Shown here one piece after another: positions 26,337-31,915 of a DNA stretch of 32,000 nucleotides. Below the pieces are notes generated by a model. The model worked only from the letters and a program-made list of their open reading frames with translations. It did not search any database and had not been told where the DNA came from. Source of the DNA: Halomicrobium mukohataei DSM 12286. Its GTDB lineage: Archaea > Halobacteriota > Halobacteria > Halobacteriales > Haloarculaceae. How positions within the stretch are numbered: the stretch's first letter is position 1; every line of letters begins with the position of its first letter. The stretch is from NCBI RefSeq assembly GCF_000023965.1, contig NC_013202.1, forward strand, positions 750,001-782,000, written 5' to 3'. Position numbers and translations under genes: made by a program.

Positions 26337-27071
26337 TCAGTACCGAGTCGCGTCGAGCGTCTCGGCCGCCTCGCGAGCGGCTTCGAGGTACTCGCGGGCC
26401 TGTCGCGGGCTGTCGGCGTCGCGAGCGCGCCGAGCGTACTGTTCGACGGTCTGGACGAGGAGCCCGCGTGCGTTCTGCAGTTGTTCGTCGACCGAGTCGG
26501 GAGCCCCCGAACGAGGGTCGTCGGCGGCTCCGCCGGAGCGGCCAGCCGGCTGCGTGCTCGTCGCGGCCGGATCGACCGACGGTGCGCTCCGCGGGTCGGC
26601 GGACTCTTCGGGTGCCGGCCCGGTGGCATCGTGTCGACCGTCGACGGTGGCTGTGTCGCGCTGGTTCTGGCCAGCTCCGGCACTCGACGGTCTACCGCCA
26701 GTCGGTTGTCGACTGTCCGCTTCGGAGGCACGTGGTGGCTGCTGGCTGCCCGCCTCCGACGCTGGCTGCTGGTCGTCGGCGTCGCCGAACTGGACTGTCG
26801 CGTCGTCGCTCGGCGTCGTCACCTCGATGTTGTCGCCGGTGTCGTCGCCCGCGTCGTCGCCGCGGTCGACCGGCTGCTGGCAGGTGGGACAGAACTCCTG
26901 TCCGTCGTACCGGAAGATGGGGTCGCCGCAGTTGTTGCAGTGGGCGTTGGTCATCGTCGCGCCCTTCAACAGGAGGTCGCTCATCTGCTCGGTGGCCTCG
27001 CGATCGGACTCTGCGTCGCCGTACTTCTCGCGGAGCTTCTCGCGTTCGGTCTCTTTGTCGAAGTCGCTCAT
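26337..27071 (-). CDS. zinc-ribbon protein, autoantigen p27 (Sjogren/scleroderma) family-like, with long disordered tail
   Basis: Start was moved to MSDFDKETEREKLREKYGDAESDREATEQMSDLLLKGATMTNAHCNNCGDPIFRYDGQEFCPTCQ. This N-terminal helix plus C-x2-C...C-x2-C ribbon is characteristic of that archaeal family. The remainder is low-complexity and acidic. Confidence 0.65.
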   Translation of the reverse strand: MSDFDKETEREKLREKYGDAESDREATEQMSDLLLKGATMTNAHCNNCGDPIFRYDGQEFCPTCQQPVDRGDDAGDDTGDNIEVTTPSDDATVQFGDADDQQPASEAGSQQPPRASEADSRQPTGGRPSSAGAGQNQRDTATVDGRHDATGPAPEESADPRSAPSVDPAATSTQPAGRSGGAADDPRSGAPDSVDEQLQNARGLLVQTVEQYARRARDADSPRQAREYLEAAREAAETLDATRY

Positions 27072-27202
27072 ACCCGTAGGGAGGCCACCGAGGAGAAAAG
27101 GGCTTGTGGGAGCCACTCGGCGCGACCGGTCGACCACGGCGATAAATGGTCGACGCGTGTCCGACACGCTTTTCGTCCAGCCATCCGGTGGTACTAGGTG
27201 TC

Positions 27203-28210: not shown

Positions 28211-28627
28211 TCACTGGCCGGCCATGGGTGACCCAGTCACAGACCGGAGCACGTATTCGGCGACACCGAGAGCGGTCATCAATCCGAGTGCGGCCAACAG
28301 ACTGAACAGATTCCGCACGTACGAGACCCCGGGAGACAGCCGGTCAGGTTGGACGATGCTGAACGAGAGAATCACGATGACGACGACAGGTGCCACGAGG
28401 GAATACTTCGTCCACAGATAGCCGACGAGAGCCGCAATTTCGACGAGGAGGAGGATATGTAGCAGCGACAGTACACTCATTCCGAGCGGTGAGGCGACGA
28501 ACGTCGCAACCGGGTCTCGCGTCGCCTGGGCCGTCATCACGATGCCCCCGACAGTCCCGTACGGGAGGCCGAAACGGAGTGCCGATCTCGTATGACTGGA
28601 ATCCAGCCTGGAGAGAGAGACGGTCAC
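28211..28627 (-). CDS. small polytopic membrane protein, divergent fifth member of the 29.1-30.8 kb paralog family
   Basis: 138 aa. The segment AALVGYLWTKYSLVAPVVV...FSLLAALGLMTALGVAEYVLRSV aligns by eye with LGAVPGYLLVRYRIVSPLPI...HAYALGVLVVVGFGEYLVRDQV of the array proteins. It lacks the SHDP(L/I)L tail. Confidence 0.55.
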   Translation of the reverse strand: MTVSLSRLDSSHTRSALRFGLPYGTVGGIVMTAQATRDPVATFVASPLGMSVLSLLHILLLVEIAALVGYLWTKYSLVAPVVVIVILSFSIVQPDRLSPGVSYVRNLFSLLAALGLMTALGVAEYVLRSVTGSPMAGQ

Positions 28628-28763
28628 GACGGAAGTATTTCGCCTTGTAAGTCAAAAATATATCTCTGAGAATGTAGAATCGAGCCAGACAGTATTTGTT
28701 GTCCGTTCAAATGTTGGTACCGACCGGCAGGGAGAGGAGCCACATGGGAAGCGCCAGTGAGGA

Positions 28764-28901
28764 TCACTCCGCGTGATCACCGCGGTACTCCGACTCCGAC
28801 GGGAGCCACGTACCCGATTCGTCATCGAGCAGTTCTTCCGAAACATCCTCGCCGAGGAGCGACGCCCACTCCTCGAGGTGTGAGCGATCAGGTTGGAGCA
28901 T
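28764..28901 (-). CDS. possible small acidic protein (45 aa) in the spacer of the paralog array
   Basis: The product is MLQPDRSHLEEWASLLGEDVSEELLDDESGTWLPSESEYRGDHAE. It is in a different frame from the listed 88-aa ORF 28652..28918, whose product is basic and implausible. The acidic composition fits the proteome. There is no homology evidence. Confidence 0.25.
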   Translation of the reverse strand: MLQPDRSHLEEWASLLGEDVSEELLDDESGTWLPSESEYRGDHAE

Positions 28902-29143
28902 GGTCTCAGCGGGTACAACTCTGTCGGAATATATAATGATTGTGCCGGTCGCCGAGAACTGGGAAGCCGTCGGCGCGGTGACTCATACTGCCGGCTGCCA
29001 CTGTTTGAAGATACTCGCGACCACGGGGTCGCAGTATTCTGTACAGACGGACAGCCGGCAGTGTCACGACGGTCTCCGGTAACGTGCGTCGGCGGCGGCC
29101 CTCGGAGCGCGACGACACACCTCCGTAGTACGGCCGGTTCGAC

Positions 29144-29548
29144 CTACAGAAGCGGATCGTGAGAGACGTACGGGACCTGATCGCGGACGAGATATTCCCC
29201 GAAGCCGACGACGACGAGCACGCCGAGGGCGTACGCGTGGACGATCGGGTTCGAGTACAGGACGATGAACGGTTCCATACTCCCGCGGTCGACGAACGCG
29301 TACCACGTCAGGAACCCGCTGATCGGTAACGGTGACACGATCCGATAGCGCACCAGCAGGTACCCGGGCACTGCGCCCAGGAGAAACGGACCGAGAAACA
29401 CGATCGGTGCCGTGAGGACGAGGACGACGCCTCCATCAGAGAACATCTGCGGGTCGATGTTCCAGTGTGCGTAAAGGAGGAACGCGACGTTGGCGAAGCC
29501 GAAGACAATGCCCGGGAGAGTATACTTGTCGAGATATACACCATTCAT
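29144..29548 (-). CDS. 4-TM membrane protein, tandem paralog 1 (134 aa)
   Basis: Four hydrophobic helices. It shares the family motifs NVAFLLYAHWNIDP, LGAVPGYLLVRYRIVSP, SGFLTWYAFVDRGSMEPFI, GEYLVRDQVPYVSHDPLL. A GGAGGA lies 12 nt upstream of the ATG. Confidence 0.75.
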   Translation of the reverse strand: MNGVYLDKYTLPGIVFGFANVAFLLYAHWNIDPQMFSDGGVVLVLTAPIVFLGPFLLGAVPGYLLVRYRIVSPLPISGFLTWYAFVDRGSMEPFIVLYSNPIVHAYALGVLVVVGFGEYLVRDQVPYVSHDPLL

Positions 29549-29566
29549 CGTATCAGATCGTCCTCC

Positions 29567-29974
29567 CTACAGTAGCGGATCGTGAGAGACGAACGGGATC
29601 CGTTCGCGGGCGAAGTACTCCCAGAAGCCGACGCCCCCGAGCACGCAGATGGCGAACGCGTGAATGAACGGACTCGAGTACAGTCCGATGAACGGTTCCA
29701 TGCTCCGCTGGTCGACGTACGCGAACCAAGAGAGGTAGCCACTGATTACGAGCGGCGACACGACTCGATAGCGAAGCAGCAGGTACCCGGGAACTGCGCC
29801 CAAGAGAAAGTGACCGAACAACACCACCGCTGTCTCGATATGGAGTAATAATCCTCCATTTGAGAACTCCAGCGGATCGATTTGCCATCGTGCGTAGAGA
29901 AGGAAAACGACGTTGGCGATGCCGAATACCATGCTCAAGATGACGTACGAATCGATGTGGAATGGATCTCTCAT
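29567..29974 (-). CDS. 4-TM membrane protein, tandem paralog 2 (135 aa)
   Basis: Start is set at MRDPFHIDSYVIL (ATG 29974), by analogy with paralog 3; the longer ORF to 30112 would overlap paralog 3. Motifs are NVVFLLYARWQIDP, LGAVPGYLLLRYRVVSP, SMEPFI, WEYFARERIPFVSHDPLL. Confidence 0.75.
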   Translation of the reverse strand: MRDPFHIDSYVILSMVFGIANVVFLLYARWQIDPLEFSNGGLLLHIETAVVLFGHFLLGAVPGYLLLRYRVVSPLVISGYLSWFAYVDQRSMEPFIGLYSSPFIHAFAICVLGGVGFWEYFARERIPFVSHDPLL

Positions 29975-29990
29975 AATCTGGTCGTCCGTC

Positions 29991-30386
29991 CTACAGTATC
30001 GGGTCGTGTGAGAGGAACGGGATCTTATCACGGATGAAGTACTCACCCAAACCAAAGGCGGCGAGGACAGCGAGAACGTGGCCGTGGAGGATCGGAAGAG
30101 AGTACAGAGCAATAAATGACTCCATACCCCCCCTGTCGACGTATGCGGCCCAGGTCAGAAATCCACTGATCACCACCGGTAGCACGATCCGATAGCGAAC
30201 CAACAGATATGCTGGAACGGCACCCAATGCAAAGTGTCCCAGCCTCACGATCGGCGTGAACAGCCCCAGATCGGCGAGTTCGAGTGGATCGATCTGCCAT
30301 CTCGCGAAGAGGAGAAAGGCGACGTTTGCGATCCCGAACACCGCGCTCAAGATGACGTACGAATCGATGTGGAATGTATCTCTCAT
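29991..30386 (-). CDS. 4-TM membrane protein, tandem paralog 3 (131 aa)
   Basis: The product begins MRDTFHIDSYVILSAVFGIANVAFLLFARWQIDP. It also has LGAVPAYLLVRYRIVLP, GMESFI and GEYFIRDKIPFLSHDPIL. It is separated by 16 nt from each neighbouring paralog. Confidence 0.75.
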   Translation of the reverse strand: MRDTFHIDSYVILSAVFGIANVAFLLFARWQIDPLELADLGLFTPIVRLGHFALGAVPAYLLVRYRIVLPVVISGFLTWAAYVDRGGMESFIALYSLPILHGHVLAVLAAFGLGEYFIRDKIPFLSHDPIL

Positions 30387-30402
30387 ACTCTGATCGTTTG
30401 TC

Positions 30403-30834
30403 CTACAGTATCGGGTCGTGAGAGACGTACGGGACCTGATCGCGGACGAGATATTCCGCGAAGCCGACGACGACGAGCACGCCGAGGCTGTACGCGTGGA
30501 CGATCGGGTTCGAGTACAGTACGATGAACGGTTCCATACTTCCGCGGTCGACGAACGCGTACCACGTCAGGAACCCGCTGATCGGTAACGGTGACACAAT
30601 CCGATAGCGCACCAGCAGGTACCCGGGCACTGCGCCCAGGAGGAACGGGCCGAGAAACACGATCGGTGCCGTGAGGACGAGGACGACGCCTCCATCAGAG
30701 AACATCTGCGGGTCGATGTTCCAGTGTGCGTAGAGGAGGAACGCGACGTTAACCGCACCGAGGAATCCACCGACAATTGTGTACTTGTTCACCTGCAGTG
30801 TTTCTTCAAAAACCCCACCCATTTTCTCACTCAT
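30403..30834 (-). CDS. 4-TM membrane protein, tandem paralog 4 (143 aa)
   Basis: From residue ~32 onward it is nearly identical to paralog 1 (LLYAHWNIDPQMFSDGGVVLVLTAPIVFLGPFLLGAVPGYLLVRYRIVSPLPISGFLTWYAFVDRGSMEPFIVLYSNPIVHAY.LGVLVVVGF.EYLVRDQVPYVSHDP.L). The N-terminus is different (MSEKMGGVFEETLQVNKYTIVGGFLGAV). An alternative start is Met5 (30822). Confidence 0.75.
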   Translation of the reverse strand: MSEKMGGVFEETLQVNKYTIVGGFLGAVNVAFLLYAHWNIDPQMFSDGGVVLVLTAPIVFLGPFLLGAVPGYLLVRYRIVSPLPISGFLTWYAFVDRGSMEPFIVLYSNPIVHAYSLGVLVVVGFAEYLVRDQVPYVSHDPIL

Positions 30835-30922
30835 ACATTAGTTTTAATATTTATTTGATTATTAATAGTGCGATACAATCGGGTCGTATTCACCCGTTCG
30901 AAATATACTCTCACACTGTAAA

Positions 30923-31915
30923 TCAATCATCGTCAAAATATTTCCAATTTCCGTTGTGCGATCCGAATCGTTCCGATGTGGCGGTATTACCAACCGAGAT
31001 AGTTTCCGAATTAATCCCCGATTCCTGAGACCAGAAATCAGATACCTTATCTCTCGCAGCGTCTATTTTCCAGTTGATGTTCTCGTTATCTCGCAGGTGA
31101 CCATGTGTACAGGGGTCTTGATGCGACTGTCCAACCGCAGTGATACCATCTGCAGGAACGTCATACAGTCTAATGTGCCACTGCTTCGTTTCGGCATCAC
31201 AGAAAATATCGGAGATCCACTTCATAATGTGCTTGTCAGTTTCTTTAGTCCCACCGTTGGGAAGGTTGACCGTCTTCGGGACACGCATCCACGGGAGCAT
31301 CGTGACCGGCCCGGGTAGCCAGGCTCTTCCAACGCTTGCATTTTCCATATTTTGCTTAATACTTTGAGAATCCTCCGCTTCCCAGGCAAGGTTCAACGGT
31401 GAACTGCGACTCTGCTGGTCGCTATCGGCGTCGGGATCGTAGTGATACAGCGGGACGTTTCCGTCAATTTCTGCCTGGTCCTGCAGTTCGATCTCTTCGC
31501 TCTGTTGTTCTCTGATGCGTTCCTCCGCGTGCCGGTTTTCTGCCTCTGTTCCGATGACTTTCTTGGTCTGGAAGGTGTAGGTCGTCTTCCGTCGCTCTCG
31601 TACCGCCTCGGGAACACGCTCCTTCGAGAGGACCTGATCCATGTATCTGAAGATCGGATCCCCGTACCGCTCGGCCAGATCCACGCTCTCGAACTTCCGT
31701 TCCAGAATGTAGCGGTCTTCGTGACTCGGATCAGGACGATAGTGAGAGACGAGTCTCCCGTCCGCGTACACGGGTAACTGTTCGTCGTTACCTGGCCCCC
31801 CGGTACCGAGCGGTTGCACTGTACTGTCCGACGAACGGTCGGCGGTTGCGCTCTGTACCGCACCGAGTAGCGATGTGGAGGCGATGCCCTTGAGGAATTT
31901 TCTTCGTTTCGTCAT
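30923..31915 (-). CDS. Tat-secreted protein of unrecognised family (330 aa)
   Basis: The N-terminus MTKRRKFLKGIASTSLLGAVQSATA has a near-consensus twin-arginine motif (RRKFLK), then a hydrophobic region and an A-x-A-like site. The mature part is hydrophilic and acidic with 2 Cys. It has many A/T-ending codons compared with the core genes. AT-rich regions lie on both sides. Confidence 0.75.
   Translation of the reverse strand: MTKRRKFLKGIASTSLLGAVQSATADRSSDSTVQPLGTGGPGNDEQLPVYADGRLVSHYRPDPSHEDRYILERKFESVDLAERYGDPIFRYMDQVLSKERVPEAVRERRKTTYTFQTKKVIGTEAENRHAEERIREQQSEEIELQDQAEIDGNVPLYHYDPDADSDQQSRSSPLNLAWEAEDSQSIKQNMENASVGRAWLPGPVTMLPWMRVPKTVNLPNGGTKETDKHIMKWISDIFCDAETKQWHIRLYDVPADGITAVGQSHQDPCTHGHLRDNENINWKIDAARDKVSDFWSQESGINSETISVGNTATSERFGSHNGNWKYFDDD

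Follow-up and report, generated by a model that had tools for sequence, protein, structure and literature searches.

A haloarchaeal locus pairing a predicted Tat-exported protein with an array of four-helix membrane proteins is a candidate effector–immunity module

Introduction

What function could be served by a run of closely spaced genes for small, mutually similar membrane proteins beside the gene for an exported protein in a haloarchaeal chromosome? This question is raised by a 32,000-nucleotide (nt) stretch of the Halomicrobium mukohataei DSM 12286 chromosome (NC_013202.1, positions 750,001 to 782,000; hereafter the window), in which a gene for a predicted substrate of the twin-arginine translocation (Tat) pathway, here called S, is followed by four paralogous genes, D, C, B and A, of a family that we call M, and then by a distant relative, E. 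The original prediction, made from the nucleotide sequence without database searches, counted five paralogs, favoured immunity genes next to a secreted protein as their identity and held a multi-subunit membrane complex to be equally possible.

Comparison with related loci identifies A to D as a lineage-specific expansion of the M half of a conserved two-gene haloarchaeal S–M module. Based on the way in which this module is inherited, exchanged and lost, we judge it moderately probable that S is a new halocin-like effector and that the M array consists of cognate and orphan membrane immunity genes.

Results

In 12 S-bearing lineages, which span four haloarchaeal families, an M-family gene lies 3′ of S and on its strand; the pairing of a gene for a predicted exported protein with one for a small membrane protein is conserved. 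The pair occurs in Halomicrobium (the window, KBTZ05 (L001/L002), GOC74 (L003), LC1Hm (L007/L015) and both S copies of IBSBa), in three metagenomic lineages (loci L011 and L017/L018) and on megaplasmids of Halobacterium hubeiense, Hbt. salinarum, Natribaculum luteum, Halomontanus rarus and Halorussus aquaticus, with S identity falling to ~25-30% and gaps of 2-140 nt between the two genes. Its distribution is patchy and plasmid-rich, and its composition is foreign (low GC, atypical GC content at third codon positions, GC3). Two S lineages have a partner other than M, namely a convergent gene for a 124-aa polytopic protein in the Halogeometricum type and a downstream gene for a 132-aa polytopic protein in Halorussus lipolyticus, neither with detectable similarity to M. 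Since every S has a small membrane protein as its partner, the array in the window represents an expansion of that partner. The Halogeometricum-type S and its 124-aa partner are found together in unrelated contexts, comprising a chromosome, plasmid pHBOR03 and a metagenome contig (L005 10001-11414, L016 5001-6443, L025), and appear to move as a two-gene unit. In Natribaculum and Halomontanus, M is the fastest-evolving gene of the neighbourhood (51% identity vs 78-83%). ABC transporters also stand beside S in distant lineages (L011 168-2023, L017 2938-4763, L021/L022 1-3730), as an ABC-2-type ATPase and permease pair divergent from S in L011 and L017, and as a binding-protein-dependent importer operon upstream of S in Natribaculum and Halomontanus.

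Within the window, the four co-directional open reading frames (ORFs) of the array, predicted at 29144-29548, 29567-29974, 29991-30386 and 30403-30834, were recovered at exactly these minus-strand coordinates, and their reported separation by 16-18 nt holds, with gaps of 18, 16 and 16 nt. Their paralogy is well past chance, with pairwise BLASTP identities of 55-86% (E 1e-52 to 1e-84) and every motif quoted for them present; in a MAFFT alignment the other three paralogs are 61, 61 and 90% identical to A. The spacers are homologous to one another, and gene ends and spacers align as repeat units of the form CACGA(C/T)CCG..CTGTAG-G(A/G)..ACGA(T/C)C.GA. Because the last codons and the spacers of all four genes align mutually, the unit of duplication was the gene plus its spacer. 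Tandem Repeats Finder reported no repeat over A to D, since the copies are only ~70-88% identical at the DNA level.

The fifth member originally assigned to the array is a different case. E shares 27-30% identity with A to D across ~67 residues (BLASTP), matches the two C-terminal helices of M (HHalign probability 88%, E 3e-6) and scores 29-31 bits against a broad M profile. It carries the core motifs GYLxx(R/K)YxLVxP and G.xEYxxR and is missing the SHDP tail. Orthologues of E itself occur at 90% identity in KBTZ05, at 66-68% in H. zhouii and metagenomes and at ~60% in HArc-gm2. The synonymous divergence (dS) of E between DSM 12286 and KBTZ05 equals that of mdh (0.148 vs 0.151) and is far below the divergence of M and S alleles; for these two reasons E behaves as a core-like gene and not as an array unit. 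Judging from its profile similarity and motifs, E is a member of the M superfamily that stands outside the tandem array, a separate orthologous lineage evolving at the rate of core genes, so that the array proper numbers four and the count of five was too high. E had no match above noise in Pfam, NCBIfam, PADLOC or PHROGs. The M-like ORFs of metagenomic locus L017 share the 'ALR(F/Y)G.P' N-terminus of E.

The island that holds S and M is found at a fixed site in Halomicrobium, always between the origin-associated oapABC genes and mdh (Table 1). In related genomes, cdc6/orc1 and the gene for the PolD small subunit lie a few kb past oapA/B/C (L001 4912-9257, L003, L006, L013, L026 626-2373), and the adjacency of oapABC and cdc6/orc1 places this hypervariable S–M hotspot next to a chromosomal replication origin. 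A locus has between 1 and 5 M genes, some of them truncated, frameshifted or recombinant (frameshifted or truncated in L007 and L013).

Table 1 Layout of the island in Halomicrobium genomes, listed in the oapC-to-mdh direction. S1 and S2, type-1 and type-2 S; Mdiv, M subtype that follows type-2 S; orf, small acidic ORF; IS, insertion sequence.
Genome	Layout
DSM 12286 (window)	...S1-D-C-B-A-orf-E
KBTZ05 (L001)	M-S1-M-M-orf-E
GOC74 (L003)	M-S2-Mdiv-M-M-orf
LC1Hm (L007/L015)	S2-Mdiv-M(frameshift)-M-orf
IBSBa (L026)	psiS-M-Mdiv-M-M-S1-M-orf-E
H. katesii (L009)	IS / D-(C/A hybrid)-orf-E; 5′ stub of S elsewhere
Metagenome Halomicrobium (L013/14)	M-E-psiM-orf
HArc-gm2 (L006)	M-E; M directly after oapC, no S

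Comparison of KBTZ05 and GOC74 shows how the island changes. Sequences that are 98.6% and 99.1% identical between the two strains flank a swapped segment, which consists of the 3′ two-thirds of S plus, in GOC74, a divergent M. At the protein level, their S sequences are 96-100% identical to residue ~90 and ~40% identical beyond it, with a hypervariable stretch at ~186-214. Type-2 S always has Mdiv as the next gene downstream, and Mdiv, 59% identical between GOC74 and LC1Hm, shares no more than 27-45% identity with any other M protein. The distal part of S and the adjacent M have thus been exchanged together, and the alleles are polymorphic among close strains. The dS of S is 1.25 between DSM 12286 and KBTZ05 and 1.17 between GOC74 and LC1Hm, compared with 0.15 and 0.04 for mdh in the same pairs, that is, 8-28x the mdh value (Mdiv dS 0.74), from which it follows that the S alleles are much older than the strains that carry them. 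Ratios of non-synonymous to synonymous divergence (omega) of 0.19-0.53 for M and 0.12-0.25 for S place all of these genes under purifying selection.

M genes are also retained where S is absent or broken, and orphan M genes occur, as observed in IBSBa, H. katesii, HArc-gm2, L013/14 and Hbt. salinarum. HArc-gm2 and the metagenomic Halomicrobium loci have M without S, and in Hbt. salinarum S is truncated and M intact. In H. katesii, S is reduced to a 70-residue 5′ stub (P0060) elsewhere in the genome, and the D copy of this strain, at 99% identity, has an omega of 0.05; the second M is a recombinant, C-like in its N-terminal and A-like in its C-terminal part. Directly beside the H. katesii array, which has collapsed to two genes, lies an IS-type transposase (L009 7001-8844). 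IBSBa encodes an Mdiv that is 96% identical to the LC1Hm copy though the strain has no type-2 S. The second S of IBSBa (L026 2670-3661) is split by a frameshift into ORFs of 230 and 83 aa, the latter being the representative of the 90% cluster that contains the S of the window.

The four hydrophobic helices predicted for each M protein are borne out by a confident AlphaFold model of A based on a 39-sequence alignment (predicted local distance difference test, pLDDT, 89.5; predicted TM-score, pTM, 0.81). The helices span residues 10-31, 40-68, 73-86 (short) and 101-124, and a small helix (94-97) sits in the same loop as the conserved DRGSMEPF motif. Arginines (RYR) flank the turn between helices 2 and 3, and loops 1 and 3 are acidic, which suggests an N-in/C-in topology in which the conserved tail would be cytoplasmic. 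The 14 Halomicrobium members compared vary mainly at the N-terminus, along helices 1 and 4 and in the first half of helix 2, and are conserved in the second half of helix 2, loop 2, helix 3, loop 3 and the tail. In the widest alignment only E118 and R122 of helix 4 (EYxxR) are invariant, with Y63 and P73 nearly so. The SHDP(L/I)L ending, described as an invariant tail, is indeed invariant within the Halomicrobium clade; more distant members (106-146 aa) keep GAVPxYLLxRYxLVxP, MEP(F/S) and EYxxR but terminate in PxP(L/I)(L/V/F) or directly after EYxxR. Two proteins, P0049 (246 aa) and P0054 (263 aa), are head-to-tail fusions of two M units with eight predicted helices, and they indicate that tandem duplication of M recurs outside Halomicrobium.

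M is a rare family. A word-indexed search of 5.8 billion proteins returned 17 M clusters, nearly all from Halomicrobium, and an exhaustive HMMER scan of 1.84 billion representative proteins returned 27 M proteins. A narrow pattern scan placed M in 2 of 185,579 species genomes, a count that understates the family, and tblastn on plasmids found distant members which that scan had missed. A to D had no match in Pfam, NCBIfam, PADLOC or PHROG, and a Pfam scan of 29 M members gave scattered noise only (best E 0.0017, to unrelated domains of unknown function in single members). Searches of PDB sequences, with four profiles over M and S together, gave no match, and the model resembled no structure in the PDB or among viral predicted structures (best E 1.1 and 0.65, TM-scores <=0.4). 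A known housekeeping family with single-copy orthologues, which would speak against an immunity role, is therefore not what was found, given no curated match and 27 members among 1.84 billion proteins. The ExxxR of helix 4 prompted consideration of a CPBP/Abi-like immunity protease, which was rejected on the grounds that PF02517 does not match, the motif order is wrong and M is too small. A cytochrome-b-type or DsbB-like anchor for a Tat-exported redox enzyme was likewise discarded, M having no conserved His pair or Cys pairs and only E118 and R122 invariant.

S begins with MTKRRKFLKGIASTSLLGAVQSATA|D, in which a twin-arginine motif (KRRKFLK) precedes a predicted AxA-type cleavage site (SATA|D); R4, R5 and L8 are invariant across the S family, and the Pfam TAT_signal match is sub-threshold (E 0.0038-0.17). 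No hydrophobic segment follows the signal. The remainder consists of an N-terminal beta/alpha domain (~45-133) and a C-terminal domain with the invariant motifs Q245-x-H247-x-R249-x-Y251 and H265-x-D267-P268-x-x-H271. An alignment of 15 S sequences, including homologues of 28-31% identity, leaves R170, P173, Q245, H247, R249, Y251, H265, D267, P268, H271, W295, G309 and G322 invariant, and this set of His, Asp, Arg and Tyr residues suggests an enzyme active site or a metal site. The structural model of S (10-sequence alignment) has an overall pLDDT of 42 and exceeds 70 only for residues 45-133, and a Foldseek search with this low-confidence model was uninformative (best E 0.58).

Searches with S found no match above noise in Pfam, NCBIfam, PADLOC, PHROG or PDB sequences. 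A Pfam-A scan of 17 S sequences (that of the window and 16 relatives) returned only weak matches to the Tat signal and LssY_C and chance matches. The LssY_C (PF14067) match, to type-2 S, is weak (13.3 bits against a cut-off of 25, E 0.064, 2 of the 17 sequences) and covers ~30 residues, 'SSPxNLAWE...GW', on positions 13-41 of the 188-position profile. It sits where a C-terminal LssY_C-like domain would start, has no support in other S lineages and serves as a lead only.

The coordinates of the locus are collected in Table 2. The low GC noted for the array relative to mdh is evident from GC3 values of 0.68-0.79 for A to D and 0.59 for S, compared with 0.86 for mdh; overall GC is 0.43-0.62 over 28.2-32 kb vs 0.64-0.72 upstream. 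In the gap between S and D, the TATA-like AAATAAATATTAAAAC precedes the second ATG of D by ~26 nt and may be a separate promoter of the M array. A 181-aa, TTG-started version of B (29567-30112) was dismissed as an artefact of an open upstream frame that overlaps C, ATG 29974 fitting the public protein P0002.

Table 2 Features of the S–M locus in the window.
Feature	Position	Strand	Length	Remarks
S	30923..31915	-	330 aa	ACV46942 / C7P034_HALMD; predicted Tat-secreted; proposed effector
S-D intergenic	30835..30922	-	88 nt	AT-rich, GC 0.43
M paralog D	30403..30834	-	143 aa, or 139 aa from ATG 30822 (NCBI start)	ACV46941; A/D subtype; directly downstream of S
D-C spacer	30387..30402	-	16 nt	GACAAACGATCAGAGT; homologous to other spacers
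M paralog C	29991..30386	-	131 aa	identical to P0004
C-B spacer	29975..29990	-	16 nt	GACGGACGACCAGATT
M paralog B	29567..29974	-	135 aa	identical to P0002
B-A spacer	29549..29566	-	18 nt	GGAGGACGATCTGATACG; GGAGG Shine-Dalgarno-like element inside
M paralog A	29144..29548	-	134 aa	ACV46938; sequence used for AlphaFold model
Small acidic ORF	28764..28901	-	45 codons	MLQPDRSHLEEWASLLGEDVSEELLDDESGTWLPSESEYRGDHAE; conserved
E	28211..28627	-	138 aa	membrane protein
mdh		+		flanks E

The ~515-bp spacer described between A and E is present, but is not empty, since it contains the conserved small acidic ORF. This 45-codon ORF accompanies the island in all Halomicrobium loci (homologues L001_11959, L003_12793, L007_5465, L013_11889 and IBS_8428) and is 95.7% identical at the DNA level to the L001 copy. 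The TATA-like TTATATAT lies ~26-30 nt upstream of it, the spacing expected of a leaderless transcript. Public annotations make this ORF 90-91 aa long, the added part being out of frame in the window. On the same strand, 26337-27167 encodes a zinc-ribbon protein (Auto_anti-p27 family in related loci) with a long, Asp/Gln/Ala/Ser-rich, low-complexity C-terminal half, and the length of this neighbour varies among strains (225-295 aa).

Discussion

We favour an effector and its immunity genes as the explanation of this locus because S and a small membrane protein are paired, S and M are exchanged jointly, the alleles are old, the arrays are variable, and M is kept both without S and for a non-self S. 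These comparative patterns are recognised signatures of bacterial toxin/immunity loci such as colicins, contact-dependent inhibition (CDI) and Rhs systems, and effector–immunity arrays of the type VI secretion system (T6SS). Under this reading, S would be exported folded via Tat and released into the surroundings, where it would act on related haloarchaea as a proteinaceous antagonist (a halocin-like archaeocin) of their envelope or membrane, and M would neutralise S at the membrane of the producer. In the low-GC hotspot between oapABC and mdh, S alleles and their matching M subtypes are exchanged as cassettes, and tandem duplication together with unequal crossover adds further M genes; the resulting cognate and orphan immunity genes may protect against S variants made by neighbours. 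We infer each of the functional steps, namely secretion and signal cleavage of S, its toxicity, protection by M and the matching of M to S, from the genomic patterns.

Several observations weigh against this reading. Sequence and fold searches detect no domain of a known toxin, halocin, immunity or defence protein in either S or M, and the C-terminal domain of S is modelled at a pLDDT of 25-40 only. Selection on S as a whole is purifying and not positive. The M gene directly after type-1 S varies by strain (D-type in the window, C-type in L001), so any one-to-one cognate pairing is tentative. In Natrialbaceae the pair is single-copy, has near-native GC and, in two genera, keeps a syntenic position after an ABC importer, which is more like a stable accessory function. 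Finally, the invariant intramembrane Glu/Arg pair and conserved, putatively cytoplasmic tail of M could equally mean that M has an activity of its own.

The Natrialbaceae pair lends weight to a reading in which S is a non-toxic secreted enzyme, such as a nutrient-acquiring or envelope-remodelling hydrolase, with M as its dedicated membrane anchor, dock, sensor or regulator and the array a set of duplicated partners. We regard this as unlikely, though more probable than the other alternatives. S and M occur 1:1 in most lineages with very short gaps that suggest co-translation, S has an invariant, catalytic-looking residue set under purifying selection, and the Natribaculum/Halomontanus pair has near-native GC3 in its syntenic place downstream of the importer operon. 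A partner should, however, decay after loss of its enzyme, yet M is intact and under purifying selection in H. katesii, Hbt. salinarum, HArc-gm2 and L013/14. The swap of the 3′ part of S with a matching M, alleles 8-28x older than their flanks, the non-self M subtype of IBSBa and the two lineages where an unrelated small membrane protein takes the place of M also go unexplained by an enzyme partnership. Most of these patterns would be accommodated by a polymorphic pair of secreted ligand and membrane receptor for kin discrimination, for example gating cell fusion, mating or biofilm partnership, in which M variants could set which neighbours' S alleles count as compatible. This fits since matched exchange, ancient balanced alleles, M without S and non-self M subtypes are equally expected of it; we nevertheless give it a slim chance.

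A hetero-oligomeric membrane complex or set of small transporter subunits, or a housekeeping role for M with S as an unrelated neighbour, would suit the co-directional, tightly spaced genes with operon-like Shine-Dalgarno-like spacers, the family-wide invariance of Glu118 and Arg122, the fused duplicates P0049 and P0054 and the single M directly after oapC, without S, in HArc-gm2. A fixed set of subunits is not what the genomes contain, though: close strains differ by 1-5 copies, some truncated or recombinant, most lineages have a single M, the family is very rare (27 proteins in 1.84 billion and 2 of 185,579 species genomes), and its adjacency to S recurs in 12 lineages. We therefore consider this explanation highly improbable, and the complex does not keep the equal standing that the original prediction gave it. 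The island could also be the remnant of a virus, plasmid or mobile element, with M serving superinfection exclusion or receptor masking and S being a virion or host-interaction protein, as low GC, atypical GC3, the many megaplasmid homologues and the transposases beside the module in H. katesii and H. hubeiense might indicate. This is the least probable of the alternatives, given that a search of 2.9 million viral contigs found no relative of S or M, neither PHROG/PADLOC nor viral predicted structures match, integrase, capsid and replication genes are missing from every island seen, and the island keeps to one chromosomal site, between oapC and mdh. Immunity genes beside a secreted protein, as first suggested, thus remain the identity best supported by comparative genomics (linkage, exchange, copy number, M without S and the Mdiv of IBSBa), despite the lack of a recognisable toxin domain.

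As an effector–immunity pair, S–M would resemble several known systems and differ from each. The pore-forming colicins A and E1 have 3-4-helix immunity proteins, Cai and Cei, and colicin M has the membrane-anchored Cmi. As in colicin operons, a gene for a large secreted protein is found beside a small (~110-180 aa) polytopic membrane gene in matched allele pairs, and the partner of the Halogeometricum-type S is convergent with S in the manner of pore-forming colicin immunity genes. Unlike the colicin systems, to which S and M have no sequence or fold similarity, S lacks a hydrophobic hairpin and looks enzyme-like, export is predicted to proceed via Tat and not with lysis proteins, the envelope is archaeal and M forms multi-copy arrays. 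The cdiA-CT/cdiI loci of CDI systems, Rhs and T6SS arrays share with S–M a conserved N-terminal part, a C-terminal part swapped together with the downstream gene, the accumulation of extra immunity-type genes and displaced S fragments, strains that keep M without S, and a hypervariable locus at a fixed chromosomal position. In contrast to these systems, the C-terminal regions of S are all homologous variants of one domain and not unrelated toxin domains, the loci have no contact-dependent delivery machinery or pre-toxin domains, and the candidate immunity proteins belong to one integral-membrane family, accompanying a predicted Tat-exported protein in an archaeon.

Closer to home, halocin H4 is a protein of ~35 kDa, and mature S, at ~305 residues, is of similar size. 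Like the halocins, S is haloarchaeal, genome-encoded and predicted to be Tat-exported, with a patchy and often megaplasmid-borne distribution. It differs from H4, C8 and S8, none of which it matches, in that S has no Pfam match and its antagonistic activity is only proposed. According to a 2026 survey, these three are the only halocin families that have been molecularly described, and the C8 immunity protein HalI is part of the C8 precursor (bioRxiv 10.64898/2026.07.27.741052), whereas the candidate immunity protein M is a separate four-helix membrane protein. No mention of S, M or the S–M pair was found in the searchable literature. What is new here would be the components, comprising two orphan protein families, predicted Tat export and a four-helix immunity candidate in an origin-proximal array; the logic is already known from bacteria.

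Molecular conflict between archaea is poorly understood, and the locus provides a testable candidate for a fourth, unrelated halocin family, together with matched candidate immunity genes, allele types 1 and 2, and natural controls in the form of M-only, S-pseudogene and orphan-M strains. Should the toxin reading be wrong, S–M would still be an uncharacterised, tightly co-evolving two-protein system predicted to act at the haloarchaeal cell surface. If it is right, S would be a secreted effector with a new fold and an invariant His/Asp site, M would represent a new four-helix immunity fold, the hypervariable hotspot beside the main replication origin of Halomicrobium would be accounted for, and archaea would share with colicin, CDI and T6SS systems the logic of swapping cassettes and collecting immunity genes.

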